DNA of 64,000 nucleotides from Chthoniobacterales bacterium (GTDB lineage: Bacteria; Verrucomicrobiota; Verrucomicrobiia; Chthoniobacterales; UBA10450): contig JBPCJC010000046.1 of NCBI GenBank assembly GCA_051005695.1, positions 106,772 through 170,771 of the forward strand, read 5' to 3'. Shown here in pieces: positions 10,259-64,000 of the stretch (positions within the stretch are counted from its first letter, which is position 1; the number at the start of each line of letters is the position of its first letter). The notes beneath the pieces were generated by a model. That model did no database searches. It saw only the letters and a program-made list of their open reading frames with translations, and had not been told where the DNA came from. Made by a program: the position numbers and the translations under genes.

Positions 10259-10954
10259 ATGAAACGTTACCTTCCGTTCGCGCTCATTCTCCTGGTCGCT
10301 GCCGTCGCCTGCACCGCGGGCGTCATGATTTTGCGCCATCAAAAAACTGTGCTTGCCGCTGCCGAACGCGCGCAGGTCGAGGAAGCTTCGTTCGGTAAGC
10401 GTGGCGCCAATCCACCGCACATTCGCGGAAATGCGAGGGCCCCGGTTACCCTCGAAGAATTCGGCGATTTTCAATGCCCACCCTGCGGCAACCTCTCTTC
10501 AGTGCTTGCGAAACTCGAGCACGATTACGGCGCGCGTTTACGCGTTATCTTCCGTCAATATCCCTTGCAAATGCATGCCCACGCGGCGGAAGCCGCGCGC
10601 GTCGCCGAGGCCGCCGGAATGCAGGATAAATTCTGGGAGATGCACGATTTGCTATATCGCAACCAGACCAGCTGGACCAAAGCGGCTGACCCGACCGCCG
10701 AGTTGAATGGTTACGCCGGCAACCTCGGGCTCGATCCCGAACGCTTCAAAACAGATCTAGCATCCAAGACCGCCAAGGAACGAATCGAAGCCGACCAGGC
10801 GCGCGCGGACTCGTTAGGCGTGGACAGCACCCCGACCGTTTATCTGAATCACAATCGTGTCACGCCCAGCGCCTTTAACGAAAAAGGTCTGCGCGCCGTA
10901 ATCGATGCCGCCCTTGGTGGAAAAGCTCCCGCCTCGCCCTCGCCGACGAAATGA
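10259..10954 (+). CDS. DsbA-family thiol:disulfide oxidoreductase (thioredoxin fold, membrane-anchored).
   Basis: CPPC active site within FGDFQCPPCGNL. N-terminal TM helix: LPFALILLVAAVACTAGVMIL. ATGA start/stop overlap with the downstream VKOR gene. Confidence 0.85.
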   Translation: MKRYLPFALILLVAAVACTAGVMILRHQKTVLAAAERAQVEEASFGKRGANPPHIRGNARAPVTLEEFGDFQCPPCGNLSSVLAKLEHDYGARLRVIFRQYPLQMHAHAAEAARVAEAAGMQDKFWEMHDLLYRNQTSWTKAADPTAELNGYAGNLGLDPERFKTDLASKTAKERIEADQARADSLGVDSTPTVYLNHNRVTPSAFNEKGLRAVIDAALGGKAPASPSPTK

Positions 10955-11412
10955 AAAAATCGAGATCCCGTAACGTGGTCGAGCAGGGGGCACGCGCGCG
11001 CCGGATCATCCTCACGATTGCCGCCGTCCTCGCTCTCGCTGGGTTGGCCGAAACCACTTACCTCACCGCCTCGCATTTTGCCGGCGCCCAAGTCGTCTGC
11101 GGAAACGCCGGAAATTGTTCGCAAGTTCTGGGAAGCATCTATTCCAGCGTGCACGGAATTCCCCTCGCCGCGCTCGGTGCGCTCGCCTACTTCGTCGTCT
11201 TCAGTTCTGCGACTTTGGCCGCCTCCGGTTATCGAAAAGCCGGCCTCGCCCTTGCCCTGGTCGTGAGCGCTATGTTTGTGACCACCCTTTGGCTGCTTTA
11301 CTTACAGGCCTTCGTCCTCCACACTTTTTGCGAATATTGCCTCGCCTCCGCGGCAATCATTTTCATCCTCGCCGGCCTGGTCATAGCCATGCCGCCGCCG
11401 CAAGAAAATTAG
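10951..11412 (+). CDS. Vitamin K epoxide reductase (VKOR) family membrane protein, a DsbB analogue.
   Basis: Loop cysteines in CGNAGNCSQVLGSIYSSVHGIPLAALG and a CxxC in a TM helix (FCEYCL). Four predicted TM segments. Translationally coupled to the DsbA-like gene. Confidence 0.85.
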   Translation: MKKSRSRNVVEQGARARRIILTIAAVLALAGLAETTYLTASHFAGAQVVCGNAGNCSQVLGSIYSSVHGIPLAALGALAYFVVFSSATLAASGYRKAGLALALVVSAMFVTTLWLLYLQAFVLHTFCEYCLASAAIIFILAGLVIAMPPPQEN

Positions 11413-11440
11413 CCGCCGCAATTCCGGCCTGGGACAGCAT

Positions 11441-14400
11441 TTGTCCCTCCACTCTGCTAGAATCGGCGGAGTGCAGTTGGAATTGGAACTTCAGTCGAAT
11501 CGCCGAGTCAGCCTGCTCATCGCCGCTTCTGCGCGGGGGGCTTGGGACGGCGCGATCGCGGCTTGGTGCGCGCGAGTCGCCCGGGAAAATTGGAAAACAC
11601 AGCGCCCAGCCGCAATCGTAGTTCCGACCCGCGGCCAGGCGCAGGCGTTGAAAGCGTGCCTGCTCGAACACGGCCAATCCGCGCTCGGCATTCATTTCGT
11701 CACTCCGCCACACCTGCGGATCTTGCTCGCGGGCGACATCGAAATTTCTTCGCCGCAGCGCGAACACTTCCGCCTCCTCCTCGCGCTCGCCGCGGAGGAA
11801 CAGCTAGCCGATTCATCGCTCGCCGAAGCTGAACGTCTCGCCGCCATTTCCGTCCGGCGCACGCCCGATCATCTGCTTCGTTTACTCGAGCAACTCAGCG
11901 CCGCGGGTGCCGATTTTAACCAGGTCGATCTCCCCGCCTTTCGTTCGGTGGTGCGAAAGTTTCGCGCTCAACTCGCCTCCGCCGGGCTCGACCTCGCTCC
12001 AGAAGCCGATCGCAAATTGCTCGGGCACGCGCGCTCATCCGCGCGCGCACTTGAAGAACTACTCGTTAGCGGGTTTCACGGCGCACACTGGCCGCTTTGG
12101 AATCTCTTGCACGCCGCCACCGAAAGCGCCGACGCGGCCACGGTCTTCCTGCAATATCCGCGCGCCGAAGCTGCTGATCTCGACGCGGCCTGGATCGGAA
12201 CCTGGGAAGAAAAGTTCGGCGAAGCCAAACCGATCGAGTCCGAAACCGACACGCCCGCACCGGAGCGTGAAACAATTTTCCTCGCCGGAATGGATACGCG
12301 CGAACAAGCGGAAGCCATCACCGCCGCGGCCGAAAAATTTCTCGCGGACGAATCCTGCACTCGTCTCGGCATCATCGTCCCGGCCGCCGGCGCGCTCGCA
12401 CGTCTCGTGGCCGCGGCCTGCCATCGCCGTGGTCTTCCGCACTACGACGCCATGGGCCAGATGGTGCCGGGCATTTTCGAGTCCGCGGATTTTTGGAGCT
12501 GGCTGGAACTGCAGCGCACGCCGCGGCTCAATGTTCTCCTGCGTTTCCTGACTCATTTGCCTAACGAGCACGCCTTCTTCAACGAAATCTCGCGCCGTAA
12601 AATCGCCGACGCCCTGACTCGTGCGCACGGCGAGCTCGCCCTCGACGAACTCCCTCTGCTCATCGCCTTCGCGCGCACGCACAACGAACACGGCGAACTC
12701 GTCGCCGCGGCGCTGCGCTCGATTCTCTTCTTACCGGAACGCGCAACTTTCGCGGAATTCTCCCGCGTTACCGCGGACGCGTTTCAGCAACTCGACTGGA
12801 ATGAAAGCGAGCGCGAAATCCAATCGCGCACCGGTTGGGCAACGGACATCTCCTCGACTTTCTCGCGCACGCTTTACCTCCAATGGCTCGAGGAAATCGC
12901 GCTTAGTTTCACCCTCACTCGCGACCTCCTCGGCCAGCATCCGTACGCGCGCGTGCAAATTCTCACGCCCGCGCAGGCTGAGGATCAATCGTGGTCGCAT
13001 CTCATCCTCGCGGGCTTGAACGAAAACGCCTGGCCCGCGAGTGCGCGCGGCGATTTTCTTCCGGCTGCGCAGATCGATTCCCTCAATCAGGCCGTGCAAA
13101 AAATAAACCGCGCGGCCACCCGCCGCGGTCGTCAGGGCGAAGGGCACGTCGCGGTGCGCGAGGGCGCCACCCTTTTTCTCGGCACTGCGCAACAGCGCCA
13201 GCTCGCGCTCGCCCAGTTCAACAGCCTGGTCGAATCCACGCGCTGCGGCCTCGCCCTCACCGCCAGCGTCGTCCAGGAAGCAACTCCCGAACGCGTTTCC
13301 AATCCGAGCGAATTTTTCAGCCGCATATATCATCAGGTGCATGGGCGCTCTGTTTCGCAGACGACCTTGCGTGGTCTGCGCGACGCCACGCGCGCCTGGT
13401 TGCAGGAAGCCGCCGCGCCTTCGCAAAATGAAAGCGAAAACGCTGCGCGCGGGATTCGCCAAACCCGTCTCGCCTACTCCGCGCGGCGCGATCCCGAGGC
13501 CGTCTCCGGCGAGTATGATTTTGCCCTGCGCACTCGGCCTAAGGAGACAAAGCCGATGAGCGTGAGCGCGATCGAAGCCCTCTTGAAATCGCCCGCGCTC
13601 GTCTGGTTGGAACGTTATCTCGGCGTCGCCGGCGAAGAAGACTCAACCTATGCATGGAATGCTACCGTCGGAAAATGGACCCACCAATGGTTGGCCGACG
13701 CCATCGGGCGGAGCGAGAGCTTTGTCCCGTTTCCTTCGGCTAACGAGATCGCACAACGTCTGCTCACGGCCGCGGAACGAAAACGCGCCGAGGTCGCACA
13801 GCTTTGCCGCGAGACCGGAAAGATCGTGCCCGATTGGTGGGAATCCGGTTGGGAAAATGCGCTCTGCCTTGCGCAAACTCTCGGCCGTATTCTCGCGACC
13901 GCCGAGGGTTGGAATTGGGCCGTGCCCGAATGGCGCCTGGAAGCGCAGGCGATTCCGGTGGGCGACGATCGCCATCTTCTCCTCCGCGGTTTTGCCGACC
14001 TCTTGTTAGTCCAGTCGCACATCAAGCCGACTTCGCTGCGCGTGCCGGCGCTTTGGATTGTGGATTACAAAACCGGGAACAAAAAATCTCTCTCGGTTAA
14101 GAATGCCAAGACCCCGGAAATGGCTGCGCGCCGCGTGCTCCGGCAAGTCCTGAAACGTGACGCCTTGCAGCTCGGCCTCTACGCCCTCGCCGCGGAACAA
14201 TTCGGCGCGGAAAACGTGCAGGTCAGTTTGCTTTCGCCGCTCACCCCGCGCGCCGAGCCGCAACTACAGCGCGCAGAATTTTCCGTTTGCGAGCCGGCTT
14301 TTCGCGAGCTCGCGCGCATGCAGGCCACCGGCATTTTCGGGATGCACGGCACACCGCGCGATCGTTTCAGTTTCACCAGGGATTATCCGCTGGCCACGCT

Positions 14401-14479
14401 CGCGATCGATCGCGAGATCACCGAGGAACGCTGGGAAAAAACGCACCCCGATCTGCCGATTGACGAGGAGGCGTATTAA
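11441..14479 (+). CDS. addB: AddB-like subunit of a helicase-nuclease (C-terminal PD-(D/E)XK nuclease). Start uncertain.
   Basis: About 1000 aa, immediately upstream of and abutting a UvrD/AddA-type helicase gene. C-terminal nuclease motif: LWIVDYKTGNKK...LQLGLYALA. Confidence 0.7.
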   Translation: MSLHSARIGGVQLELELQSNRRVSLLIAASARGAWDGAIAAWCARVARENWKTQRPAAIVVPTRGQAQALKACLLEHGQSALGIHFVTPPHLRILLAGDIEISSPQREHFRLLLALAAEEQLADSSLAEAERLAAISVRRTPDHLLRLLEQLSAAGADFNQVDLPAFRSVVRKFRAQLASAGLDLAPEADRKLLGHARSSARALEELLVSGFHGAHWPLWNLLHAATESADAATVFLQYPRAEAADLDAAWIGTWEEKFGEAKPIESETDTPAPERETIFLAGMDTREQAEAITAAAEKFLADESCTRLGIIVPAAGALARLVAAACHRRGLPHYDAMGQMVPGIFESADFWSWLELQRTPRLNVLLRFLTHLPNEHAFFNEISRRKIADALTRAHGELALDELPLLIAFARTHNEHGELVAAALRSILFLPERATFAEFSRVTADAFQQLDWNESEREIQSRTGWATDISSTFSRTLYLQWLEEIALSFTLTRDLLGQHPYARVQILTPAQAEDQSWSHLILAGLNENAWPASARGDFLPAAQIDSLNQAVQKINRAATRRGRQGEGHVAVREGATLFLGTAQQRQLALAQFNSLVESTRCGLALTASVVQEATPERVSNPSEFFSRIYHQVHGRSVSQTTLRGLRDATRAWLQEAAAPSQNESENAARGIRQTRLAYSARRDPEAVSGEYDFALRTRPKETKPMSVSAIEALLKSPALVWLERYLGVAGEEDSTYAWNATVGKWTHQWLADAIGRSESFVPFPSANEIAQRLLTAAERKRAEVAQLCRETGKIVPDWWESGWENALCLAQTLGRILATAEGWNWAVPEWRLEAQAIPVGDDRHLLLRGFADLLLVQSHIKPTSLRVPALWIVDYKTGNKKSLSVKNAKTPEMAARRVLRQVLKRDALQLGLYALAAEQFGAENVQVSLLSPLTPRAEPQLQRAEFSVCEPAFRELARMQATGIFGMHGTPRDRFSFTRDYPLATLAIDREITEERWEKTHPDLPIDEEAY

Positions 14480-14480
14480 G

Positions 14481-17400
14481 ATGACCCCGAGCGATCAAGC
14501 AGCACGCGATCGTTTCGCGCACGAACTCGATCGCAATTTTTCCGTCATCGCCGCCGCCGGTTCCGGCAAGACCCGCGCGGTCACCGATCGGATTGTGGCG
14601 CTGGCAAATTCTTCCGGCGCGGTCAACGCGCTCCCGCGTCTGGTCGTGCTCACTTTCGCCAACCGCGCCGCCGATGAGATGCAGCAGCGCGCGCGCGCGC
14701 AAATTCTGGAAGCGAATCCAACCCCGGAAATCCTGGCCGCGTTTAACCGCGTGTGGTTCGGCACCATTCACTCCTTTTGCCTCAAGCTTCTGAATGATTA
14801 CGGCCACTACCTCGGCCTGCCCGCGCCGCTCGACTTGATCCAGGACGACGACGATCTCTGGAATGAATTCGTCCAACAACAAACGCACGTCGGACGTTCG
14901 CTCTCGCCGGCAAATCGCGCCGCCTTGCTCCGGCTCGCTTCGCTCCGCCACATCATGGAACTCGGGCGCCAAGCGGGCTCGGCGCTCCTCCGGCCTAACG
15001 AGCCCTGCGCTTTTCCGGAAATAGATCTGCAGGAAATCCGCCGCGCGGCCTTGGGCGCGCGCAAGAGTGAAACGGTCGACAACTCCATCGCGCAACTCAA
15101 CGCCTGGGAAAATGATTTCCGCGATGGCTCCGGTTTTCTTCGTTGGCCTGGTTGCTCCACCACCGCCAAAGGCATCGACGAAATCTGGGAGCGCGCCTTC
15201 ATCCCCTTGCGCCGCTGGGTCAATCAAACCGCCATCTGCGTCGCTGCAGAAGTGCAGCACGATTACCGTAACTTCCGGCTCGAGCGCGGCGTGGTCACGT
15301 ATGCCGATCAGATCGCGCTTGCCGATGAACTCTTGCAACATCCCGAAGCCGCGCGCCGCCTCCGCCAGCTCGATCATCTCGTGATTCTCGACGAAGCACA
15401 GGACACTGATCCCGCCCAATTTTCTGTGCTCCTGGAAATCACCCGCCCGCCGGATGCGACCGGCCGCTGGTTGGAAATGCGAACCGATCCGCCGCGGCCA
15501 GGCCGCTTCTGCATGGTCGGCGACCGCCAGCAGTCCATCTATCACGACCGCGCCGATCTTGCGCATTACCTCCGCGTGCACGAAGCGCTCGTGCAATCCG
15601 AAGCCGGCGAAGCGCTTGTCTTCGCCGTCACCTTCCGGCTCGATCAGGGCCAGCTCGATTTTATTAACGTTACTTTCGGCGAAATTTTGCACGGCAGTGA
15701 AGGCCAGGTTGAATTCGTTAGGCTGGAACCACGTCCGCAGATTCTGCCCGGCCAGGTCATTCGTCTTTCTCTTCCCGGCCAACTTCTCGCCGGCCACGAA
15801 AAGCCGAAAGATCGGGTGATCGCACGCATCGCCGCGGACGAACTTGCCCGCTGGTTAAAAAACGCCGGCGTCGAAAAATTGCGCGCGCACACCTGGCGTG
15901 AGGTCGCGATTCTTTGTCCGCGACGCGATTGGTTGCGCACGATGGCGATCGCGCTGCGCAAAGTCGGATTGCCCGTGGAAGTGCAATCGGAAAGTGATCT
16001 GCAAGCCGACTCGCCCGCCTACGCCTGGTTGACCGCGCTCTGCACGATCATGGTCGAGCCGCGGAATCACTACGAAATTGTCGGCGTCCTGCGCGAAATC
16101 TACGGACTCTCGGACCACGACCTGGCGATTTTTTCGGAGGCCAACGGGAGCCGTTTTCAGATTGAAACTGCCGTCGCGTCCGCCGGCGTGATCTCTTCGC
16201 AAATCGCCGAGCTCGCGGAGCTGCGCGCTTCTCTCCAAAGCTTGCCGCTGTTTGCCGCGATCGAGCAATTGCTCGCGCGCACCGCCTTGCGCGCCCGCAT
16301 CGCTTCGCTCCCCGAGGAAGATTTTAAGAACCCGCTCGCTGATCTCGACACTTTGCTTACGCTCGCCGCCGAATCCGCGGCGGCTGGCGGGACGCTCGCC
16401 GATTTCGCGGAGCGTTTGCGTTCCGAGATGGAACGTCCGCGCCCAGTGCGTCTCTCGGATGAAAATGCCATCCAGCTAATCACCGCGCAGAAAGCGAAAG
16501 GTTCGGAATGGGACGCGGTCATCGTGCCGTTTCTCAGTCGCCGCATCGTCGGCTTCTGGCCGCGTTATCCGTCGCTCATTCGCGTCCCCGGGGGCGATCA
16601 AGTAATCGCCGCGTTGCACAAGGAAGATCGCGAAAGCGAAATCAAAGAGGCCTACAAAAAATTGCGTCGTCAGGAAATGGAACGCCTGCTTTACGTCGCG
16701 CTCACACGCGCGCGGCACACCCTCGTGCTCGTGGCCGATCGCGAACTTTTTTCGCATCGCAGCGATCGGCTGGCAGATGATTCGCAGCTAAAGTTTTTGC
16801 GGGGCGATCGCCATGAATCGAGTTACGCCGCGCTCGAAACGCTTTCGAAAAATGCCGAGGCCTGCGCGCAAACTTCAGCCTCCTGGGAAGAAAAACGCGC
16901 CGCGGTCGCGGAACCGAAACTCGCGCTCACGCCGCTCGATTCCGCCACGCGGGAGCGCGCCCGCGCGCACGCGTCCGATTTCATTCGCAAACAAAATCCC
17001 AGCGGCTACGGCGAGGAACTCGAATCGTCCGGGGCGACGATCCCCGCGCGTTCGCTCGCGGATAATCCGGCCACGCTTTACGGCAGTTGGTGGCACACAC
17101 TCTTTCAACATTTCCCCTGGACGAGCGGAGCCGCCCAATGGCAGACCGCTTTCCACGCGCTGCAACCCAGCTCGCCTGATGCTGCTCGTTCCGAGCGCGA
17201 ATGGAAATTATTCGCGAAGACGCCGGCGGATTCCGCATTCATGCAATTTCTCGGGCGTCCCGGAATTGTCGCGCACACCGAGTTTCCATTTTTGTGGCGC
17301 ATCGATCAGCGCACCTGTCTTGAAGGCGTGATTGATTTGCTCGTGATCGATCCGGAGGCGCGGAAATGTTTGCTCATCGATTGGAAAACCAATCACGTCA

Positions 17401-17639: not shown

Positions 17640-17658
17640 ATTGAAAAACGGAGCGACA

Positions 17659-20378: not shown

Positions 20379-20387
20379 GAGGCTGCG

Positions 20388-24823: not shown

Positions 24824-24840
24824 TCACTCGTTAGGCCATC

Positions 24841-53312: not shown

Positions 53313-53449
53313 GGAGCGTCTCCTCGAAATGAGGAGCGCGGAATATGGTGGCGAGGAGGTGCGGCGTCAACCGGCGGGCGATTTGCGCTGCGAGATAACC
53401 GCGGTACGGTGCGGCGGAGGAGAGAAAAAAGTAAACTCCCTTTGGCCCA

Positions 53450-53995: not shown

Positions 53996-54228
53996 GGGAA
54001 GACGGCCGCAGTTAATCTTCATTCGGACAGCAGTGCTCCGTTGAACGTTGTGACAGCCTGGAGGTTGTCACCCGTTAAATCTGCGGACGGAGTAAGGGGC
54101 GACACTCATGTCGCCGAGAGTCGGTCACTAAAGCAAACCGCATAGCAAGCTCCAAGAGCAAGTCGTTGCGTACGCAAAACAGCTCCAACCCGGAGGCTGG
54201 AGCCGTTTGACGATAGTGCTCGAACTTG

Positions 54229-54849: not shown

Positions 54850-54889
54850 TGGTATATTGTCGATAAGGATTTTCTTTTTTGGCTATTGA

Positions 54890-57800
54890 TTATGGAATTG
54901 TCGAGCCGCTTCTGGACTTGACGATCACGATGTCACCAATATTGATCGCGCCATCAAGGTTCAGGTCCCTGCGGAAGGTCGCTGCCGTAACCGCGCTTCC
55001 TGAGCTGCTTTTCACCTGGCCGATGTCGCCGATGTCGACCGACTTGTTGCCGGTCGTATCTCCGGTAAGAAAACCGAGGGGCACTGAGAACGTAGAGGCC
55101 AACGTCATGCCGTTCGAATCCGTGACCCCGGAAATGGACAGGGTTCCAGTCTGGTCGTCGCTGACGTTGGTCAGCTGGACCGTCAGGTCGGTGCCGCTGG
55201 CGGTAAATGAACCGACGGAGCCGGATCCCGGCCCGGCCGGCGCTCCTCCGGGACCTGTCCCGCCGCTACCCGGAGTGAAGGTCACGGTAGCTCCGGCCTG
55301 ACTAGCTGCGAGGGTGTTTGTGAAGCGGACAACAATGGCGAAGTCACCGGGCGCGCCGGTGGTAGCTGCTCCGCGGCGAGGCTCCACGCCTCCGCCCGCG
55401 AGAGGCATGTTCACGTCAAAGGTGCCGGCTGTGCCGTGACTCTTCCGCGAGGCGACTGATAACACGGTCGGGGCGGCGGCGCCGGAAGCGGTCACCGAAG
55501 CATCGTACCACCCACGCCCGTGAGTGGCCGCACGGATGATGCGGCTCGGGTTCTGAATCGCAAGACCGAAAACGGCGACCCGCGGGATGCCTGAGAGATA
55601 TTGAGTCCAGGTAGCGCCACCGTTGCTGGACTTATAAACTCCGATGTCCGTCCCGACATAGATGTCAGTCGAAGCTCGGGAAGAAGACCCACTTTGCGGA
55701 TCAATCGCGATCGAATCGACCGGAACGTCTGGCAGTCCGCTCGAAGCGCTGCTAAATGAGACCGCACCTCCACCAGTTAGCTGATCCAGGTTACCAGTCT
55801 TAAATACGTGGGCCCTCGGTGCCGCGGGCGTGCCGAAGCCGCCATAGGCGACGTAGGCGATGTTCTTGTTATTCGGATCAATCAGGACGCGGGTTACAGG
55901 ACCTGTAGGAGTATTAGTCGGCCCATTCGTGGCGCCAGGGCCGGCGATCTGCACGAGAGCACCGCCCGTGGTGGTGGCGAAAACAAATCCATTATTGGTT
56001 GTTCCTAGGATGCGGACGTTATCGTCCTGCGGGGAGATGGCGATGTCAGTGACGAAGTCACCGAGGAATGAGCCAGCGGTTGTGGTGTCAGCTCTATCGG
56101 TGGAGCGATACAGCTTGTCGGTGCCGAAATACCAGGTGTTGGGATTGCCCGGCCCTAGAGTCATGGGCGCGTAGAATAGGACGTTATCCGTCAGCGCGAT
56201 GCCATTAAAGGTATCCTGGGTGCCGTCGCAATAGACGGTTGTGGTATCGAGAGCTCCGCCGTAGATGCCATGGAACGACCATTCTCCCTCGGTAGCACAC
56301 GGGTTGTTCAGAACACGCCCCGATCCGATAAGATTATTGGTCTGATTAAAGTAGGTGTGATACTGGACGACGTTGGTCGTGTCCGTCGCATTTTGATCAA
56401 TAAGGGTGTAGCCGCCATCGCCGAAGTCTACCCGAAAGTCGCTTCCATCTGGACGTTGTTGCTCAGTGCCATTATCTTGCGAACCAGAAATGGTAAAGTT
56501 CCCATCGATCGGATGGAGAGCAATCCCTTCGAACTGCGTGGCACTAAACCCGGCGGTGTTTCGCGACACCCAATTGTTTCCCCCGTCGGCTGATCTCCAG
56601 ATCCCGCCGTCGTTTCCATGATAGATAACGCTCCCATCGGCAGGCGTGGCCGCGTAGATGATCGCATGGACGTCAGCGTGCAGCCCGGCGGTGATGGCAG
56701 GCGGTGCGGGCGGACTGGGATCGATAGTAAAGGTAGTCCCTCCGTCAGTAGACCGGCGGAAGATTCGATTGCCCGCTTGACCACCGACGCTGACGTTGTT
56801 CGCGTTATTCGGATCTACGCCCACAGAGAGATCATAAAAGCCTTGGCCGCCCGCGAAGCCGTCCGCGCCAGTTAGACGAACAAAATTCGCGCCGCCGTCA
56901 ATGGATTTGTATAAGGTGCCGGATGATTGGTCAGCCGTCGCATAGACAGTCACAACAGGCGTAGCGCCGCCGGTCGTCTGAATCGCGAGCTTCGAGTTGA
57001 TAAAATTCGGAAGGGCGAGGCTCTGCGTGAAGGTGGGTGTCGCCGCCAGCGCATTAGCAGATCGGTAAACACCTGCAGGATCAGTTGCGCCCTGGCTGTA
57101 AAAAACTGCGACCAGGTTGTTGGGAGTGCCCGGCTCGATAACTAGCGAGGTGCAAATCGTGTTCGTACTTGTTCCAGCTACTTGTAGGCGCGTCCAAGTA
57201 GGGCTTCCCGAAGTCGCGTTCGTCGAGCGGTAAAGACCGCGCCTCGGCGTGATCGAATTAATCGTGCTCCGAATTCCGCCAATACCAGACGAGGTCGCAA
57301 CGAAGACATTGTTTGCATTCGTTGAGTCCACCCCGATGGCAACGATCGAGCGGCCCGTGAAGATATCAGAGCCGGCAGGGACGCCGCCAGCCGGGTCGCT
57401 GCCCGAGGCGGCGTTGAATGGGCCGCTAACCACTGGACTGCCGCCGTTGGCTGCGGTGATGATGTAGAAACCGGATCCAAAGAAACTGTCCCCCGAAAGA
57501 TTTCCCTCACCGGTGCCAACAAACAGTCTGGTGCGATCCGTCGGATCAATCGTCACCGAGCCAATCGCGAGAGGATTTCCGCCGCCTACTGAAGGTGCGG
57601 TGGCGTTGTCCATCAAGGGAGTCCAGGTAGCCCCGCCGTCGAGCGTCCGGTAAAGTCCACCTTGCGCCGCACCGACGTAGGCGATATTCGCATCGGTCGG
57701 GTCGATCGCGATTGAGGTAACACGACCGCTCACCGGATCGACTCGGCCTTGAGTCTGCCCATTAGGGATCGGCGCGGGCCCAATGAAGGTCCAACCAGTC

Positions 57801-58069
57801 ACAATTCCTCGATCCCCTTTGGCGTGCTTTTGAGATTGGGAGATCGCAGGAACGCTCCGCGGTTGCGGTGCCTGCGGCAACTCGGTGGATGCAGGAAAAT
57901 TTTCGATTAATTTCTCCGCGGGAGACTCGCGAAAATCGTTGTCGCCACCCTCCGCATCGCGCGGCGCCCAAGGAATGGCCGATGCTAAACTGCCGGAAAG
58001 AACAAGGCCCAACAGGGTAGGCAGAACGCGCGACGTGAAGGAATTTGGATAAAGCTTTCGTGGATTCAT
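54890..58069 (-). CDS. Large secreted multi-BNR/Asp-box beta-propeller protein with a C-terminal SRKSHG + degenerate dockerin-like module.
   Basis: Signal peptide after the Met at 58069: MNPRKLYPNSFTSRVLPTLLGLVLSGSLASA. Asp-boxes: RTLDGGATW, KSIDGGANF, RSTDGGTTF, RSADGGNNW, KSSNGGATW. C-terminus: VASRKSHGTAGTFDVNMPL...GDTTGNKSVDIGDIGQVK...DLNLDGAINIGDIVIVK. Confidence 0.8.
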   Translation of the reverse strand: MNPRKLYPNSFTSRVLPTLLGLVLSGSLASAIPWAPRDAEGGDNDFRESPAEKLIENFPASTELPQAPQPRSVPAISQSQKHAKGDRGIVTGWTFIGPAPIPNGQTQGRVDPVSGRVTSIAIDPTDANIAYVGAAQGGLYRTLDGGATWTPLMDNATAPSVGGGNPLAIGSVTIDPTDRTRLFVGTGEGNLSGDSFFGSGFYIITAANGGSPVVSGPFNAASGSDPAGGVPAGSDIFTGRSIVAIGVDSTNANNVFVATSSGIGGIRSTINSITPRRGLYRSTNATSGSPTWTRLQVAGTSTNTICTSLVIEPGTPNNLVAVFYSQGATDPAGVYRSANALAATPTFTQSLALPNFINSKLAIQTTGGATPVVTVYATADQSSGTLYKSIDGGANFVRLTGADGFAGGQGFYDLSVGVDPNNANNVSVGGQAGNRIFRRSTDGGTTFTIDPSPPAPPAITAGLHADVHAIIYAATPADGSVIYHGNDGGIWRSADGGNNWVSRNTAGFSATQFEGIALHPIDGNFTISGSQDNGTEQQRPDGSDFRVDFGDGGYTLIDQNATDTTNVVQYHTYFNQTNNLIGSGRVLNNPCATEGEWSFHGIYGGALDTTTVYCDGTQDTFNGIALTDNVLFYAPMTLGPGNPNTWYFGTDKLYRSTDRADTTTAGSFLGDFVTDIAISPQDDNVRILGTTNNGFVFATTTGGALVQIAGPGATNGPTNTPTGPVTRVLIDPNNKNIAYVAYGGFGTPAAPRAHVFKTGNLDQLTGGGAVSFSSASSGLPDVPVDSIAIDPQSGSSSRASTDIYVGTDIGVYKSSNGGATWTQYLSGIPRVAVFGLAIQNPSRIIRAATHGRGWYDASVTASGAAAPTVLSVASRKSHGTAGTFDVNMPLAGGGVEPRRGAATTGAPGDFAIVVRFTNTLAASQAGATVTFTPGSGGTGPGGAPAGPGSGSVGSFTASGTDLTVQLTNVSDDQTGTLSISGVTDSNGMTLASTFSVPLGFLTGDTTGNKSVDIGDIGQVKSSSGSAVTAATFRRDLNLDGAINIGDIVIVKSRSGSTIP

Positions 58070-58372
58070 TTTAAAAGATTCGGGAAATAGATCTCGGCGG
58101 ATTTTCGTTAAATTATGAGCGATCGCGGAATCTTTTAACGACCGAGGCCGCAACCTAGCAAGGGTTTTTACATTACGTTTATGCAATTATGTGATTTGGT
58201 CTCGAGACTGGTATCGGGGCTACCACTTCCGCTTCGGAGCCGGCGAGTCGGCCATCGTTGTTGCTCTCGTTCCATCGCCCGAGTGTCGCCCGAAATACGA
58301 CTGTCTCCGATGGCATTCGTATTTGATAATGAGCGACGCGGCCGCGGAAAAAGAAAGCGGGTTAGCGAATGC

Positions 58373-61300
58373 CTATGGAAGCGGAGCGGCCACCGCGGCT
58401 TGCACGTTGATGAAGCCGAAGCCATCCAGCTTGGAGTAACCCGCGCCGATGCGGTTATTGATCGTGCCCGTGAAAGTCGATCCATCTCCAAGCGTGCCGC
58501 TGAAGGTCATGCCATTGTTGATTACGTTGCCTTCCGGAATCAGCACCCCGCCGCCAAACAGGTCGGCGCTGTAGTTCGTGGAGTTAGTCCCTGAAGGAAC
58601 CACCGAGGAGTGTTGAATCGCGCGACCGACGGTGAATTTGAGGATTTTGCCGCCCGTGAAGTTGTTGTTGGGGAATGCAAGTGACATCGTCCACGTCTGC
58701 GTAGTCGAGGGCGCCGGTGGCGTGCCGCTGAAGGTCGCGACCGCGTCCGCCTGCACGAGACCCACCGAGCCGGTGCCGACAGTAAACGCCTTCGTGGCGT
58801 TCGCAAAGACGAGGCCAGGGAAGGAGTTGTTCGTGTAGGCGTTGGTCAGATCGAGCCCGTTGTTGCCCGCGGTCGGGTTACCGGCATGCGCGGCGTCCGC
58901 CGGCTGGTTGAAGACCAGACTGCTGATAAAGCTTGGCCCGACGTAGGAGACGGCCAAAGCATTGGTGTCGTTTCCGCCGGTGCTGTTGTTGGATTCGTTG
59001 TCGCTCCCAAAGCTCAGGGTCACTTTGCCGCCGCTAGGGATTGCACGGGCTGTGCCACTGGAGTAATTCGGATCGAGATCGTGCGGGTAGGCTGTGGTCT
59101 GCAGAATCTTGGTCATCTGCGATGGCGTAACGCTGAAACGTCCACCATGCGCTTCCAAGACAAGCAACGCACAGGCTGCGGCGTGCGGTGCGGCCGCGCT
59201 CGTGCCGAAGAAGTTCGCGGCGGCGTCGTAGTCCGAAGAGCTATCGGAACCCAAACCAGCCGCGCCTTCATTAACGGAAATGTTAGCTCCGTCGCAGGCC
59301 GCCACTCGCGGCTGCAGGCGAATCTCCGGAGTCGCAAGTGGGTTTTGATTGGCGTCGAAGAAGATCGTCGCCGGTCCCGGCGAAGTAAAGTTCTCGGGAA
59401 TATTCGGACGAAACGGGCTGTAGGCAGCCGTACCGTTGCAACCTACAGCAATGGCGTGGCCGCTCGTGGTCACTGTATTATAGGTGAAATATTCCGCCGG
59501 CCCGATGCCCGACACTCCGTTGCCCGGAATTTGGTAGCGAAGGCGCGTCGGAGACGTCGGGGCTGATCCCGCGGCCCGCGCGATCACATATTGGACCTGA
59601 GTCTGGCCACTCGGACGCAAAGTGGCACCGAGTTGAATCGGCTGGTTGGTGGCGGTGGTGTCAGCCGTAAGAGAGCTAGTGGAGATATAGGCGCCGGTGG
59701 TCAAATTGAAGACCAACAAGCTCAAACGGTCAGGAATAGGACTGGCAAAACCAGAGGCCGATCGGACCAAGAGGGTAAACTGCCCGGTTGTGGTGCTGAA
59801 ATGCCCCACCTTGACGACGAACCCGGTATCGTTTGCAGGCGCATAGAACCGGACAACCTCATCGGTGCCGGTATCCTGCGGGCCAGCGATAACTGTAGTG
59901 CCATCCGACTTATAGACCGTAATGATGCCATCAAAGGTGCTGCCGGCAGTCGCGGTTTCGGCAACCTCATATAGAGTCCCCTGTGTGATGGTGCCCGGCA
60001 CCGCGTACGACTTATCTGCATTCGTATAGGTGTCGGTAGTCATGAAAAGAGTCGCAGTGTAAGTGGGCGAGGTATTTTGATCGTAAGGGTTATTCCACTG
60101 CAAGACCGTTGGAGGTTCGTTGGCATTCGAAGCAATGTTGACAGTTTGCGCTACGTCTAGCTGTCCAGTGTTCGGGTTAAAATTATGGAAGCCGCCCGCA
60201 TATAAGGCCGGAGGCACGTTCGCCAGGTTAATGTTGGTCCCGGCTAACGCGGTGTTCCCAGCCGCGGCGGATAAACCCGTGCCGTTAGCTACCCAGCGAG
60301 TGTCGGAATCGTAGCCATTGATACCGATATCGTTAGCGGCTGAAGAGAAATAGGACACTCCGGCCGCCGCTACGTCATTGACGCCCGCGCCGATGATGCC
60401 GTCTTCAAAGAAAGGCTCATCGAAATAGCCCACGTCATCACAGATCACATCCGCGGCATAGGTCTGTCCCGGAAGCGTCGCGGGCCCGAAGCCCGCAAGA
60501 CCACGGATATTATTGGCAAAGCCAACCTCGCCGCCATCAGCGGTTGCGTAGCCCACTTTGGCCTTCGGCGCCATATGGTAGACGATCTGGCACATGCCGC
60601 GCCCTTCGTCGTCGCTGCTCGTGCTAGCCAGGTCATCCTGAAGCACAAAGACCGGGGTGTTGTTACCGACGGGATTGCTCCCGCTACCCGGCAAGTCGTT
60701 GTTGGAGACGTCGAGAGAAGCAGGGTGAGCGGTATTGGCCGCGAAGCTATTCGAGAGGCAAGCGATGCTCATGTTTGCGCCCTCGAAATCGACCGGCGCG
60801 CCAGCATTGTAGTAACGGTTGATCCCATCGACCCGGTGCTGGATAACGCCTTGATCGAAGAATGTCCCAAGATTCGGATAAATCTGACCAACGGTGGCGC
60901 TGCCTACCGGGCCGCGTGACTTGGACGTCTCGACAGCCTTTTGGTCGACTTTATTGTGGCGCGGACGGAGTTCCAAAATGACCGAGCGGACCCCTTTCAT
61001 TTGCGCCAGCGCCGGGACGTCGTCGATGGAGACATAGGCGTTCGCGACACCGACGCCGCGATATGCCTTGTCGACGGCCGTCACCGTCAAAGTGCTAATC
61101 GCTTTGCTCAGCCCGCTGATCGTGTCATCAACAGTCATTTGACCATCGAAATTAATGCGTACCAAGAGACGATCTTGCGCATCCGTCAGCGCGAGATTTG
61201 CCAAGATGGCATTCTCTTCCGTGGTATAGCTCTTCCCGTCCTGACCGCGGACAGAATTGATTTTTGCTCGCTTGGAGGCTGCCTGTAGATCGAGATGGCT

Positions 61301-61417
61301 CTGGACCAGGCGATCGAGACCGTTGCCCAAATTTGCAGGCACTGGCTTGGCATAAAGGGAACCGGCCGCGATCCCGAAGGAGACCGCGACAATAGAAAAA
61401 CGTAATGGGATATTCAT
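58373..61417 (-). CDS. Secreted subtilase-like (S8/S53-type) serine peptidase with large beta-rich C-terminal domains.
   Basis: Signal peptide: MNIPLRFSIVAVSFGIAAGSLYA. Serine motif: FFGTSAAAPHAAACALLVLEAHG. Upstream: DEGRGMCQIVYHMAPKA, VICDDVGYFDEPFFEDG, FSSAANDIG. Catalytic Asp/His assignment not verified. Confidence 0.6.
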   Translation of the reverse strand: MNIPLRFSIVAVSFGIAAGSLYAKPVPANLGNGLDRLVQSHLDLQAASKRAKINSVRGQDGKSYTTEENAILANLALTDAQDRLLVRINFDGQMTVDDTISGLSKAISTLTVTAVDKAYRGVGVANAYVSIDDVPALAQMKGVRSVILELRPRHNKVDQKAVETSKSRGPVGSATVGQIYPNLGTFFDQGVIQHRVDGINRYYNAGAPVDFEGANMSIACLSNSFAANTAHPASLDVSNNDLPGSGSNPVGNNTPVFVLQDDLASTSSDDEGRGMCQIVYHMAPKAKVGYATADGGEVGFANNIRGLAGFGPATLPGQTYAADVICDDVGYFDEPFFEDGIIGAGVNDVAAAGVSYFSSAANDIGINGYDSDTRWVANGTGLSAAAGNTALAGTNINLANVPPALYAGGFHNFNPNTGQLDVAQTVNIASNANEPPTVLQWNNPYDQNTSPTYTATLFMTTDTYTNADKSYAVPGTITQGTLYEVAETATAGSTFDGIITVYKSDGTTVIAGPQDTGTDEVVRFYAPANDTGFVVKVGHFSTTTGQFTLLVRSASGFASPIPDRLSLLVFNLTTGAYISTSSLTADTTATNQPIQLGATLRPSGQTQVQYVIARAAGSAPTSPTRLRYQIPGNGVSGIGPAEYFTYNTVTTSGHAIAVGCNGTAAYSPFRPNIPENFTSPGPATIFFDANQNPLATPEIRLQPRVAACDGANISVNEGAAGLGSDSSSDYDAAANFFGTSAAAPHAAACALLVLEAHGGRFSVTPSQMTKILQTTAYPHDLDPNYSSGTARAIPSGGKVTLSFGSDNESNNSTGGNDTNALAVSYVGPSFISSLVFNQPADAAHAGNPTAGNNGLDLTNAYTNNSFPGLVFANATKAFTVGTGSVGLVQADAVATFSGTPPAPSTTQTWTMSLAFPNNNFTGGKILKFTVGRAIQHSSVVPSGTNSTNYSADLFGGGVLIPEGNVINNGMTFSGTLGDGSTFTGTINNRIGAGYSKLDGFGFINVQAAVAAPLP

Positions 61418-61462
61418 AAAACGGCTAAGAGATGTCAGGATAGATGTAGAAATGATTTCCGG

Positions 61463-62155
61463 TTAGGCCTCATTGCGGGAAGAAATCCAGCGCTTGCTCG
61501 CGAAGCGACCGGCGAGGACAAGCAGCACCAGAGCGGTGGTCGAAGGTTCCGGGACCGCGGCAGTTGCCGAACTACTGAGGAAGATAGAGTAGGCACCCAT
61601 CTCGCCAAAACCGGCGGCGCTATTGAACCCAGAGAGGGTGTTGGGATTGAGACCGGCGGCTGGTCCACGCACCGCTGTGGAATCACCGCCCGGATACGGA
61701 GCGAAGAGCAGCTGGCCATTCAAGTTCATCGGTTCATTGCCGGAGAGGCTAATCCCGAGAATGTAGGTCCCAGCGCTCAAGGAGACGGTGAAGCTGGAGC
61801 CGGCCGGCAGAGTTGATTGCAGGGTCATTCCGCTGGCATCGTCGTTGGTCGAAATCGGCACTCCACCGTTAGTGAAAAGGAAAAGCGCAGTGTCCAGGGT
61901 AGAACCGCCGAAGGTCGTAGCTGAGAAAGTGGTCGGTGCCGTGATCGTGAAAAGGTAGAGATCGGCATCGTTGATCCCGGAGATATTGCCCGAAATAGTG
62001 CTTAAGGGATTGCCGCTCGATGCCCCGGTAGCTTGTACCGTCCCTAAAGTCTGACCAGCATCGCCCGTCTCGTTATAGGTTTGACCCCGAGCGGCGGCAG
62101 CCGTCAAGGCAAGGGCCACGAAAGTGGCAGACCACAGGTGTAGTTTTGTGCGCAT
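61463..62155 (-). CDS. PEP-CTERM protein with a PPC-like (pre-peptidase C-terminal-type) beta-sandwich.
   Basis: Signal peptide: MRTKLHLWSATFVALALTAAAARG. NDADLYLFTI motif. C-terminus: AVPEPSTTALVLLVLAGRFASKRW. Confidence 0.8.
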   Translation of the reverse strand: MRTKLHLWSATFVALALTAAAARGQTYNETGDAGQTLGTVQATGASSGNPLSTISGNISGINDADLYLFTITAPTTFSATTFGGSTLDTALFLFTNGGVPISTNDDASGMTLQSTLPAGSSFTVSLSAGTYILGISLSGNEPMNLNGQLLFAPYPGGDSTAVRGPAAGLNPNTLSGFNSAAGFGEMGAYSIFLSSSATAAVPEPSTTALVLLVLAGRFASKRWISSRNEA

Positions 62156-62405
62156 AAATATACAGTTGAGTATGAACTGAAGTGTGATCCACGCGAACAC
62201 GAGAACTCAATCCTCGCCGAGCACTCTCCGGTGGCTACGTTTATTGGCGGCAGAGCGTCTATGCCCGTCACGGCGCCGTCAACACAATTTGGGTGCGATA
62301 GAAAATAATTATTTCGGACTTCCCCATACCAATGAAAGAGCCGGCGAATCTCACCCGCATTCAGACTTTTTCGGACCATCGAAATGCCGCCGAATCGGAA
62401 GCGAA

Positions 62406-62891
62406 TTAAGGGTAACTAAAGCGATAAAACCGGCGCGAAAATCTTGCCGCGTCCGGGTCTGCGAATTGCAAACTGCCGTCACTCGCGGCGGTAAGAGTCG
62501 CTCTTGGACTAAAGCCGGTTAGCAGATCGGTTGTGGCCTCGACGGTGTAACGCTGCGAGGGCGCGCCCAGACCCCGGATCCGCATCTCCCCATTTTCCAA
62601 TTCGGTGATGGAGGTAATCTGCAAAGGGGGCAAAATCGGGGTAAGCAGAAATGCGTGCGTCTCCGCTCCGAACTTGCCCACTCCGGTGATCTGGCCGCGA
62701 TCATTGATCGCGCGCGCGTCCATCAGAATCCAACCGCTCCCGGTCGCGATCAGGTGATTGAGATCCTGCATGCCATATGAAGTAGTAAAGACAAACGCGT
62801 GCTGCGTGCTGTTGTTACATTGTACGTGAACTGCGCCTGCGCCAATGAAGTGACCCAGAGGAACAGCCCGTACATCGGCCATCGAAACCAT
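62406..62891 (-). CDS. HAF-repeat extracellular protein fragment (start uncertain; possibly truncated).
   Basis: HAFVFTTSYGMQDLNHL...ARAINDRGQITGVGKFGAETHAFLLTP matches the HAF-family extracellular repeat pattern. There is no signal peptide at any candidate start. The longer track ORF (to 63245) would overlap ptsN on the opposite strand. Confidence 0.4.
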   Translation of the reverse strand: MVSMADVRAVPLGHFIGAGAVHVQCNNSTQHAFVFTTSYGMQDLNHLIATGSGWILMDARAINDRGQITGVGKFGAETHAFLLTPILPPLQITSITELENGEMRIRGLGAPSQRYTVEATTDLLTGFSPRATLTAASDGSLQFADPDAARFSRRFYRFSYP

Positions 62892-63045
62892 TTCATGCGG
62901 CGATGAAGTTAGCGCCCTGTTAGGTTCTCGCCAGGGCCGTTGGCACGGCCTCGTCTTCGCAACGCAGCCCTCCTGTTCGGGGCCCAAATCACGCTTGTCA
63001 TCAGAGGGGCTCACAGTAAGCTTGCCCTCCCAAATCGGGAACTGC

Positions 63046-63510
63046 ATGTCGTTGGCTAGCCTATTATCCGCCGAGCAAATCATTCCGGAGATGAAGGCCA
63101 CTGAACGCTGGCCCGCCATCGTCGAGTTGATCGAATTGCTCATTCGGCTGGATAAAATCAAAGGCGAAGACCGCGAGAGCATCCTCGCTTCGCTCAAGCA
63201 GCGCGAGGAAACCATGAGCACCGGGATCGGCTTCGGCATTGCCATCCCCCACGCTTCCTCCGAGCGGATCGACGACGTCGTCGCCGCCTTCGGCCGCTCC
63301 TCCGCTGGGATCGAATTCGACGCGCTCGATAACGCTCCGGTGAAATTCGTCGTCCTCTTCGTCGTTCCGAAAAACCAGTTTCAAACTCATCTCCGCACTC
63401 TCGCTTCGATCGCTAAGTTCCTGAACGATCGCGCGACGCGTGACAGCCTCGCCGCCGCCGGCTCCGCGGAGGAAATTCTCGCGATCTTCCGCGACCGCCC
63501 GCAGAAGTAA
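63046..63510 (+). CDS. ptsN: PTS EIIA-Ntr type protein (nitrogen regulatory IIA).
   Basis: MSLASLLSAEQIIPEMKA...ETMSTGIGFGIAIPHASS carries the phospho-His context. About 154 aa, a single EIIA(Fru/Mtl/Ntr) domain. Confidence 0.8.
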   Translation: MSLASLLSAEQIIPEMKATERWPAIVELIELLIRLDKIKGEDRESILASLKQREETMSTGIGFGIAIPHASSERIDDVVAAFGRSSAGIEFDALDNAPVKFVVLFVVPKNQFQTHLRTLASIAKFLNDRATRDSLAAAGSAEEILAIFRDRPQK

Positions 63511-63522
63511 GCGCGCGGTCGC

Positions 63523-64000
63523 ATGGAAACTTTCCAGGCGCAGCTCACGCGCAAATTAGCCGACGCCCTCGTCGCCGCCGGCCTTCCGCAAGCCGGCGAG
63601 ATCACGCCCGCGACCGATCCGCGTTTCGGCGATTACCAGACCAACGCCGCCCTCGTCCTCGCCAAGCAACGGGGCGAAAATCCGCGCACGCTCGCCCAGC
63701 AAATTATCGATCGATTGGAAGTCGCGGACTTATGCGCGCCGCCGCAAAGTGCCGGTGCCGGTTTCATTAACTTCACCCTCCTGCCCGGCGCCCTGGAAGA
63801 AAAGTGCGCGCACCTCCTCGGCGACGAACGCCTCGGACTTGGCCTAACGAGTGATCCGAAAAAAATCCTGGTCGACTTCGGCTCGCCCAACGTGGCCAAG
63901 CCGATGCACGTCGGCCACATTCGCAGCACGGTCCTTGGCGACACCCTCGCCCGGATCGCCGAATTTCTCGGTCACGAAGTGATCCGCGACAATCATATCG
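63523..64000 (+). CDS. argS: Arginine--tRNA ligase, 5' part (runs off the window).
   Basis: METFQAQLTRKLADAL...DPRFGDYQTNAA...VDFGSPNVAKPMHVGHIRSTVLGD carries the class-I HIGH motif. It is not in the ORF track because no stop occurs before position 64000. Confidence 0.88.
   Translation, partial: METFQAQLTRKLADALVAAGLPQAGEITPATDPRFGDYQTNAALVLAKQRGENPRTLAQQIIDRLEVADLCAPPQSAGAGFINFTLLPGALEEKCAHLLGDERLGLGLTSDPKKILVDFGSPNVAKPMHVGHIRSTVLGDTLARIAEFLGHEVIRDNHI

Follow-up and report, generated by a model that had tools for sequence, protein, structure and literature searches.

A hyperabundant 11-bp DNA word in Chthoniobacterales with the statistical features of an uptake signal

Introduction

What kind of process would place one exact 10-mer in gene after gene of a bacterial chromosome, on both strands and in whichever reading frame permits it? 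The question is raised by a stretch of 64,000 nucleotides (the window) from a Chthoniobacterales bacterium of the phylum Verrucomicrobiota (GenBank assembly GCA_051005695.1, contig JBPCJC010000046.1, positions 106,772 to 170,771 of the forward strand), in which the 10-mer GCCTAACGAG is dispersed, about once per 1–2 kb, over most of the sequence. A preliminary description of the window had likened this word to the DNA uptake sequence (DUS) of Neisseriaceae and the uptake signal sequence (USS) of Pasteurellaceae. The counts, the reading frames, the orientation and the evolutionary behavior of the word are presented here, and they lead us, tentatively, to a similar interpretation (see below).

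Uptake sequences with a functional validation come from only two families of Proteobacteria, whose members are host-associated and have been cultured; the HIP1 (highly iterated palindrome 1) word of cyanobacteria has lately been put forward as a candidate third case. A survey from 2025 recognizes DNA uptake enhancing sequences (DUES) only in the Pasteurellaceae and Neisseriaceae (10.1101/2025.10.24.684340). A third, unrelated case would lie in an abundant and largely uncultured soil phylum.

Results

Over-representation and extent of the word

An exact match to GCCTAACGAG is found 23 times in the window, 10 of these copies being on the + strand and the other 13 on the − strand. In comparison, 0.12 copies are expected from dinucleotide-preserving shuffles (the largest count in any shuffle was 2) and 0.16 from an order-3 Markov model. 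The 8-mer core (CCTAACGA/TCGTTAGG) occurs 38 times, divided equally between the strands (19:19), with expectations of 1.13 and 1.6 from the shuffles and the Markov model, respectively. The latter is conservative, as the window on which it was trained includes the word. The excess is roughly 150-fold for the 10-mer and 24–34-fold for the core. For k from 7 to 12, the top ranks under the order-3 Markov model are all occupied by the word, its sub-words and its extensions, and no other k-mer of the window comes near them.

Perfect copies dominate over imperfect ones. The 23 copies of GCCTAACGAG outnumber the sum of all 30 possible single-mismatch variants in the window (19 copies). Among these variants, ten have the G at position 10 replaced by A or C, and positions 3–6 and 9 are invariant.

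These counts agree closely with the preliminary description. All 23 of its coordinates for the 10-mer are right, as is their division between the strands; its chance estimates (0.1–0.2 for the 10-mer and 1–2 for the 8-mer) are matched by the computed values of 0.12–0.16 and 1.1–1.6; and the one-mismatch variants that it quoted are found at 13739, 18229 and 12063. Its total of 38 for the core also stands, with a single correction, from 40092 to 40093, in the coordinates.

To define the extent of the word, the copies of the window were pooled with those of two relatives and of metagenome loci, giving a non-redundant set of 125. Only G-CCTAACGA-G-(T/A) carries information, so that the informative positions outside the core are −1 (G), +9 (G) and +10 (T/A), and the flanks are at background. 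The unit is therefore a compact, asymmetric, non-palindromic 11-bp word, GCCTAACGAGW, and is not a miniature inverted-repeat transposable element (MITE) or a repetitive extragenic palindromic (REP) element, as had been concluded earlier from the unconserved flanks. A longer consensus, GCCTAACGAGTGCAGCGCGC, was hinted at by the first 38 copies and disappeared beyond 11 bp with the 125 non-redundant copies. An apparent larger repeat family, TGGCCTAACGAGTGATCC, was an artefact of the overlap between the window and L001, which extends the window on its right side by 4.3 kb. Look-ups of the exact EIIA and BNR proteins, aimed at a further extension, gave no record.

Reading frames and protein cost

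Thirty-three of the 38 core copies are located in genes and five (13%) in intergenic DNA, non-coding DNA being 8.6% of the window. The four frames without an internal TAA or TAG are all used, with the word read as PN(E/D) in 8 cases, LT(S/N) in 10, SLG in 10, and (L/V)VR in 6. The ratio of sense to antisense copies is 18:16. Since all the stop-free frames are used, sense and antisense copies are equally frequent, and the intergenic copies are roughly in proportion to the non-coding DNA, the word acts on DNA, and not on RNA or protein.

The word carries a cost to the proteins and to codon usage. Its copies supply 9 of the 90 TTA codons of the window (10%), 10 of the 75 CTA codons (13%), and 5 of the 30 AGG codons (17%). 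At position 45798, in GlnE, the segment FPLGE (CCC CTC GGC) is conserved in seven relatives, and the window organism has FSLGE (TCG TTA GGC) in its place, a change of four substitutions that includes the rare TTA codon. Judging from this alignment, creation of the word here cost a conserved proline and brought in a rare codon.

Spacing and orientation

Where the window is dense in copies, these are spaced nearly at random, with a coefficient of variation (CV) of 0.86. Of 110 pairs of neighboring copies in the window and the independent loci, 51 (0.46) are oriented alike, which fits 0.5 and rejects the 0.625 expected under a 75% strand skew (p = 4e-4). A mixture likelihood over the loci gives a best skew of 0.50; skews of 0.70 and above cost 5.3 units of log-likelihood, and 0.75 costs 9.2. 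Dividing the window at 31 kb, a post-hoc choice, gives 12:6 versus 7:13 and a skew of 0.58, and 0.75 is still rejected (log-likelihood −4.1). Copies on the − strand are in excess in the syntenic parts of the relatives L004 and L139. A strong polarity of the type seen in Chi (crossover hotspot instigator) or KOPS (FtsK orienting polar sequences) is excluded. Three properties that had been proposed at the outset have held up: frame independence that is incompatible with a protein motif, the forcing of rare codons, and a balanced orientation unlike that of Chi or KOPS.

The window shows no sign of a replication origin or terminus, as its DnaA boxes are no more frequent than by chance and form no cluster, and there is no clean switch in GC skew. 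The GC skew is negative over 10–32 kb, across genes of both strands, irregular after that, and positive at 54–62 kb. It does not simply follow transcription in the window.

Uneven distribution along the window

The copies are concentrated in the region of 10.2–53.4 kb, which has a GC content of 0.60–0.63, housekeeping, envelope and AddAB genes, and, at 0.8 per kb, 35 of the core copies. The left flank (1–10200; GC 0.57–0.59), with genes for large secreted fn3/BNR proteins, has two core copies and no 10-mer. On the other side, the region of 53400–63500 (GC 0.57–0.58), with PEP-CTERM, sortilin-like and subtilase secreted proteins, is free of the word. The two flanks together (1–10.2 and 53.4–63.5 kb) contain 2 copies, compared to 16 expected (p = 1e-5).

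Moreover, the gene content downstream of typA varies among relatives, and this region has no copy of the word in any of four word-rich genomes (the window, L004, L139 and L141), where about 20 copies would be expected in the roughly 26 kb that were surveyed. The depletion of variable relative to core DNA is local evidence, from the window flanks and from this typA-downstream region.

Turnover and construction of word sites

The window and its relative L004 (76% nucleotide identity) share four orthologous copies. Another four copies are found only in the window and at least four only in L004, the differences being substitutions and not insertions or deletions. Even so, the word is retained above background: four of the six strictly aligned copies are kept, versus 16.8% of all aligned 8-mers (p = 0.009). 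Sites that are shared more widely are few (35636, 47905 and 48921). The word is kept in related genomes and its positions mostly are not, as the preliminary description had anticipated.

When word sites are compared with their orthologues in word-poor relatives (78 comparisons), a median of 4–5 of the 10 positions differ, spread over all positions of the word, with 116 transitions versus 228 transversions. Word sites thus arise through several substitutions that together bring about the whole word. A repair bias at a single position would not produce this. A graded selection for the complete word, or a drive in its direction, would fit these multi-position differences, which include transversions. 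Some process may be turning many genomic positions into one 10-mer by multi-base changes.

Presence, absence and other words in relatives

The closest genomes to that of the window are metagenome-assembled genomes (MAGs) of Chthoniobacterales/Verrucomicrobiota, as classified in GTDB, in line with the mention of Verrucomicrobia in the preliminary description. The GlnE protein of the window has an identical counterpart on an NCBI MAG contig of 178,864 bp, and the window organism itself is also present in three Logan runs. The relatives were compared at syntenic loci of about 22.7 kb and sorted by the amino-acid identity of GlnE. The highest numbers of core copies are found in L004 (14 copies; GlnE identity 81%) and in L139 and L141 (13 copies each; both 74%), followed by L143, with a moderate excess (6; 69%), and L006 (4; 64%). 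The L139 locus is on a contig of 3.5 Mb (ERZ25039523 contig_29889), and that of L140 on ERZ25039476 contig_5001. Three copies are present in L138 (76%) and in L142 (71%), two in L137 (83%, from a partial GlnE), and one each in L140 (73%), L007 (61%) and L005 (68%), the last in 6.6 kb of sequence. No copy is found in L144 (65%) or L008–L011 (59–61%). As word-rich and word-poor loci are interleaved in this order, the word trait is a mosaic within one order of bacteria. The low count of L137 (ena ERZ25039492 contig_545) may mislead, as typA, rho, argS and rsmD are called as fragments there, which suggests a frameshift-rich long-read assembly.

A different hyperabundant word, (A/T)TGTCGATCTT, is found in L007, with about one copy per kb in both orientations, mostly read as xVDL or (K/L)IDN. 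Its GTCGATC core has 23 copies (13 on the + strand and 10 on the − strand) in the 22.7-kb locus (JBEEGW010000016.1, Verrucomicrobiota MAG BP_777), the locus has 11 exact copies of AAGATCGACA, and the fuller consensus is (A/T)(A/T)TGTCGATCTT(G). This word contains GATC/CGATC.

Two further words were seen among the relatives. The 22.7-kb locus of L144 (jgi 3300077141 Ga0633461_0000003), which has no CCTAACGA, contains AACGTCCAAC five times versus 0.05 expected; this may be a third word, or it may be a product of the two paralogous S8 peptidase genes there. In L138 (jgi 3300036407 Ga0401338_00030), TGTAGGGGAA occurs four times versus 0.01 expected.

Independent metagenome and viral loci

A scan of metagenomes for two copies of the word within 30 nt returned 120 loci. 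Most of these are tandem repeats or chance matches, and about 25 are non-redundant, truly word-rich, and non-homologous to the window, with GC contents of 0.54 to 0.73. For example, L126 has 13 sites in 13 kb (GC 0.66), L080/L116 span 18 kb, and L022 and L051 have a GC content of 0.71–0.72. The density of the word in L126 and L080, as in L004, L139 and L141, equals that of the window. The three longest (L126, L080 and L116) encode housekeeping functions, including G6PD, SHMT, IspH, Ku and Ser/Thr kinases. As these housekeeping loci of independent metagenomes are rich in the word without being homologous to the window, several taxa have the word throughout their genomes, and it does not stem from an artefact in a single assembly. 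An assembly artefact had been named at the outset as a possible refutation, and the presence of the word in independent assemblies from NCBI, ENA, JGI and Logan disposes of it.

Some of these loci show local clusters. Five copies are located within about 80 nt of L070 (JACCDR010846857.1, at ~960–1040). Clusters or direct tandem pairs, the latter with a period of 11–14 bp and at unrelated loci, are also present in the window at 37642–37665 and in L113, L080/L116/L122, L024/L128, L119 and L033. The frequency of such pairs and clusters is subject to ascertainment bias, as pairs were required by the metagenome search. They may represent candidate high-affinity sites.

A scan of viral contigs gave five matches, and those inspected are either tandem repeats with no relation to the word or isolated pairs in contigs of low GC content. 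In two IMG/VR contigs (L012 and L016; GC 0.47–0.50), the 10-mer happens to be part of 17-bp tandem repeats (CGCCTAACGAGTAGGTA x6), which have the look of phage iteron arrays and are unrelated to the dispersed word.

Discussion

A tentative interpretation as an uptake signal

Our leading interpretation, to which we give somewhat less than an even chance, is that GCCTAACGAG(W) is a lineage-specific, DUS/USS-like (DUES) signal for DNA uptake or self-recognition, kept by biased uptake and recombination. It is suggested by the properties of the word, an asymmetric 10–11-mer in 24–150-fold excess that is found in both orientations and in any permissible frame, at a cost to proteins. It is also suggested by the dominance of perfect copies, the turnover combined with retention, the absence from variable DNA, and the presence of another word in a sister lineage. 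From this statistical and evolutionary signature we infer the further step to uptake, competence and a receptor.

In the proposed mechanism, a surface or periplasmic part of a natural-transformation machine would bind double-stranded DNA that bears the word, in either orientation. DNA of the same species would hence be preferentially taken up and recombined into the chromosome, and mutations that bring a sequence nearer to the word would be over-transmitted, a form of molecular drive. Copies would build up at all places where the function of the proteins allows them, until drive and mutation are in balance. Regions outside this exchange within the population, such as variable or recently acquired ones, would remain free of the word.

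The likeness to the USS of Pasteurellaceae (core AAGTGCGGT / ACAAGCGGT) is extensive. Both have a non-palindromic core of 9–10 bp with about one copy per kb; both are found in the two orientations, mostly within genes and in all stop-free frames, with costs in amino acids and codons; and in both the perfect copies dominate over variants, the positions are partly conserved between species, and there appear to be lineage-specific versions. In contrast, the two words are unrelated in sequence and belong to different phyla, and GCCTAACGAG does not have the AT-rich flanking segments of the USS. The DUS of Neisseriaceae (ATGCCGTCTGAA and its dialects, with ComP as the receptor) is likewise a hyperabundant 10–12-mer. 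Like the word studied here, it is concentrated in core DNA and scarce where DNA is acquired or diversifying (10.1101/2025.10.24.684340). The sister word of L007 is reminiscent of the replacement of one DUS dialect by another, although it is unrelated in sequence and is not a dialect differing at 1–2 nt.

Several observations weigh against the interpretation as an uptake signal. Terminators contain about half of the known DUES copies, and more than 90% of the copies that form inverted repeats (10.1101/2025.10.24.684340). In comparison, none of the 23 copies at 24.7–44.7 kb, the 20 kb scanned, is inside a terminator-like hairpin, such hairpins being at chance frequency there, and 87% of the copies are intragenic. 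The enrichment in terminators and inverted pairs that is typical of DUS and USS is missing, as there is just one inverted pair among the 38 copies (29227/29259, with a 24-nt spacer), which is located inside a gene for a family 4 glycosyltransferase (GT4). The Pasteurellaceae and Neisseriaceae signals are family-wide, whereas GCCTAACGAG is patchy among close relatives and nearly absent in L137, L138, L140 and L142, which are as close to the window as the word-rich ones. No competence or pilus genes are present in the 64-kb window, according to its map of open reading frames (ORFs) and Pfam domains, and no report of natural transformation in Verrucomicrobiota was found in the literature. A mild strand skew of up to 0.65 may also be compatible with the data. 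Finally, frame independence, retention, patchiness and variants fit HIP1 as well, a word of unsettled function. Of the uptake-signal-like reading that had been proposed for the window, the DUS/USS statistics have stood; the missing link to terminators and inverted pairs and the patchiness among close relatives set the word apart from DUS and USS.

Alternative explanations

The word could instead be the site of an abundant sequence-specific DNA-binding protein unrelated to uptake, either a nucleoid or chromosome-organizing protein or a non-polar mark of 'self' for a nuclease or defence system, with selection for many sites keeping it frequent. We consider this unlikely, though it deserves serious attention: the sharply defined 11 bp are the size of a protein footprint, the two orientations and the lack of a link to transcription are as expected, retention is above background, and the patchiness would suit the gain or loss of one gene. 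The clusters and tandem pairs (37642/37656 in the window, five copies in 80 nt in L070, and those in L080, L024 and L119) are also in line with this explanation, but they come largely from a search that required pairs and are biased by it. The near-random spacing is not the regular one that a structural role might impose, and a role along the whole chromosome does not predict total absence from variable regions. Moreover, we know of no nucleoid or segregation protein (parS, matS, SlmA and Noc being the systems considered) that uses thousands of exact intragenic 10-mers at the expense of conserved residues. A distinctly less probable explanation is a HIP1-like word, one that coincides or overlaps with the sequence targeted by a DNA methyltransferase or a repair system and accumulates by biased repair or by selection linked to methylation, a proposal made for the cyanobacterial GCGATCGC. 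HIP1 is intragenic and patchy among lineages, with variant words. The window word parallels it in frame use, strong excess, retention of sites above expectation, and absence from some lineages, and the sister word of L007 contains GATC/CGATC. However, HIP1 words are palindromic, with known cognate methyltransferases and quasi-periodic spacing, and GCCTAACGAG is asymmetric, not its own reverse complement, with its copies nearly randomly spaced. The changes of 4–5 substitutions over all ten positions, with 228 transversions versus 116 transitions, are not what a very-short-patch bias predicts. The targets of restriction-modification systems are normally avoided rather than enriched, and no DNA methyltransferase gene is present in the 64-kb window, RsmD being an rRNA methyltransferase. 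HIP1, described as evolutionarily conserved, is itself now proposed to be an uptake signal, so this explanation may merge with the one that we favor.

A polar signal, either a Chi site for the AddAB enzyme encoded at 11.4–17.6 kb or a KOPS-like guide for FtsK, is very improbable. Chi and KOPS resemble the word in being short, dispersed and over-represented in the chromosome, the window encodes AddA- and AddB-like proteins, and the post-hoc split at 31 kb and the excess of − copies in the syntenic parts of L004 and L139 could be taken as traces of polarity. Such signals are 5–8 nt long, G-rich, only few-fold over-represented, and co-oriented with replication (~75–90%). In contrast, the word has an excess of 24–150-fold and a skew of 0.50, at which the likelihood and the concordance of adjacent copies reject the 0.75 of a polar signal, with or without the split, and no DnaA-box cluster or clean GC-skew switch is present to explain a flip. 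The fold excess of the word is in the range of USS/DUS and HIP1, and not in that of Chi; for HIP1, an over-representation of 15–300-fold is reported (PMC5861425). A trivial cause, namely a repeated peptide motif, a remnant of a mobile element (MITE, REP, or NTS/SRM hairpin), or an assembly or vector artefact, is barely credible. REP elements, bacterial interspersed mosaic elements (BIME), MITEs and NTS/SRM repeats also have many dispersed copies, but these are hairpin-forming, intergenic units of 20–150 bp with conserved flanks, and the word is an 11-bp, mainly intragenic (87%) unit made by substitutions and not by insertions, with flanks that carry no information. The four frames together with the intergenic copies speak against a peptide motif, the four independent sources of assemblies against an artefact, and the 17-bp tandem repeats matched in viral contigs are unrelated. 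The hairpin repeats of the Ssn/NTS system were considered separately and set aside, as these (~30-bp intergenic hairpins) are unlike the word. Polar Chi/KOPS signals and trivial causes are essentially excluded.

Implications of the uptake-signal interpretation

A literature search with the word itself returned primers only and no bacterial motif, and searches on Verrucomicrobia found no report of an uptake sequence, an over-represented oligomer, or competence, in agreement with the earlier remark that no such signal had been described there. Words of this kind are already known; what is new here is a hyperabundant, lineage-specific word in a new phylum, with a mosaic that can be analyzed. There is a reasonable possibility, short of a probability, that sequence-specific recognition of self-DNA for transformation operates outside the Proteobacteria, in uncultured soil Chthoniobacterales, with unrelated words in different sub-lineages (GCCTAACGAG here and TGTCGATCTT in L007) and with close relatives that lost the word or never had it.

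If the word is an uptake signal, natural competence with species-level discrimination of DNA would be implied in Verrucomicrobiota, and the DNA receptor would be new. From the densities of such words in metagenomes one could then read which soil organisms exchange DNA with one another, and the word would be a bioinformatic marker for recombination groups and, by its absence, for acquired DNA. It would also offer a practical genetic handle, as the word could be added to transforming DNA. The relatives that are rich in the word, poor in it, or have another word represent a natural experiment on the birth and decay of such words and on what drives them, whether uptake bias, methylation or protein binding.

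Positions of the copies in the window

The genes of the window were mapped from ORFs and Pfam; the strand in parentheses is that of the copy. The first 10-mer (10810–10819, −) is antisense to a DsbA-like gene and is read as SLG. Sense copies read as PNE are found in the AddB-like gene (12559–12568, +), the AddA-like gene (14993–15002, +) and a gene for an outer-membrane efflux protein (OEP; 18981–18990, +), and the second OEP gene has an antisense copy read as SLG (19481–19490, −). The radical-SAM gene has an antisense copy (24146–24155, −; LVR), and a further copy is in the intergenic region between it and an ABC ATPase gene (24827–24836, −). The Wzx-like flippase gene, on the − strand, contains two antisense copies, read as LVR (27662–27671, +) and SLG (28257–28266, +), and the GT4 glycosyltransferase gene, also on the − strand, contains one read as SLG (28381–28390, +). 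Sense copies read as LTS are located in a nucleotidyltransferase gene (30542–30551, +) and in a GNAT gene on the − strand (31354–31363, −), the orthologous position of the latter in L004 being GCCTCACGCG. A second nucleotidyltransferase gene (33952–33961, −; SLG) and the class-III aminotransferase gene (35636–35645, −; LVR) have antisense copies, and that in the aminotransferase gene has an orthologous copy in L139.

The one direct tandem pair of the window has a 14-bp period. Its first copy (37642–37651, −) is located where convergent genes overlap at their 3′ ends, and its second (37656–37665, −) is a sense copy read as LTS in the class-I/II aminotransferase gene on the − strand. The copy upstream of the aminotransferase gene (39081–39090, +) is in an ORF without a family match and is probably intergenic. 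The RsmD-like gene, on the − strand, has a sense copy read as PNE (41633–41642, −). Another copy is located between the diacylglycerol (DAG) kinase and rhomboid genes (44479–44488, +), and one is antisense in the rhomboid gene (44676–44685, −; SLG). Both 10-mers in GlnE are antisense: 45798–45807 (−), the site of the change from FPLGE to FSLGE, and 47904–47913 (−; SLG), which has orthologous copies in L004 (as the 8-mer) and L137. The last 10-mer is a sense copy in the ArgRS gene (63842–63851, +; LTS).

Of the positions with the 8-mer core only, two are in the same gene for a large fn3 secreted protein, at 1269–1276 (+; PND) and 2567–2574 (+; LTN). Another is antisense in the AddA-like gene (15715–15722, −; FVR), and one is in a PIG-V-like mannosyltransferase gene (26519–26526, +; LTT). 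The partners of the inverted pair in the GT4 gene are 29227–29234 (+) and 29259–29266 (−; LTN), and the spacer between them is GC-rich and centered on GCGCGC (CCTAACGAcaagttcgcgcgcgttcgctgcatTCGTTAGG). The core is found as CCCTAACGAG in the nucleotidyltransferase gene (30889–30896, +; PNE), as TCCTAACGAG in the aminotransferase-III gene (36589–36596, +; LTS), and as GCCTAACGAC, antisense, in a GFO/IDH oxidoreductase gene (37048–37055, −; VVR). It is found as GCCTAACGAA three times: in a HAD hydrolase gene (33395–33402, +; LTN), antisense in the KdtA gene on the − strand (40093–40100, +; SLG), and in GlnE (46278–46285, +; LTN), where L004 has an identical orthologous copy. The remaining cores are in the intergenic region between the DAG kinase and rhomboid genes (44592–44599, −), in a DUF4112 gene on the − strand (48921–48928, −; PNE), with orthologous copies in L004 and L139, and in the YebC gene on the − strand (51108–51115, −; PND), with an orthologous copy in L004.

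An RNA-family search of the window found a tRNA-Glu only. The sequence CCCTAACGGGATTCGA, near 39.94–40.01 kb and also in L004–L010, is part of this conserved tRNA-Glu gene and is not a degenerate copy of the word.

A block of six genes at 32.2–37.6 kb (CDP-alcohol phosphatidyltransferase, HAD, nucleotidyltransferase, a hypothetical protein, aminotransferase III, and GFO/IDH) is absent from L004, where the GNAT gene adjoins that for the class-I/II aminotransferase. The block is partly present in L139, L141 and L144, and its word density is like that of its surroundings.

Three copies of the word are located within the AddB- and AddA-like recombination genes. The ORFs of these genes, as listed (11441–14479 and 14157–17639, respectively), overlap by about 320 nt, and the true start of AddA is probably further downstream.

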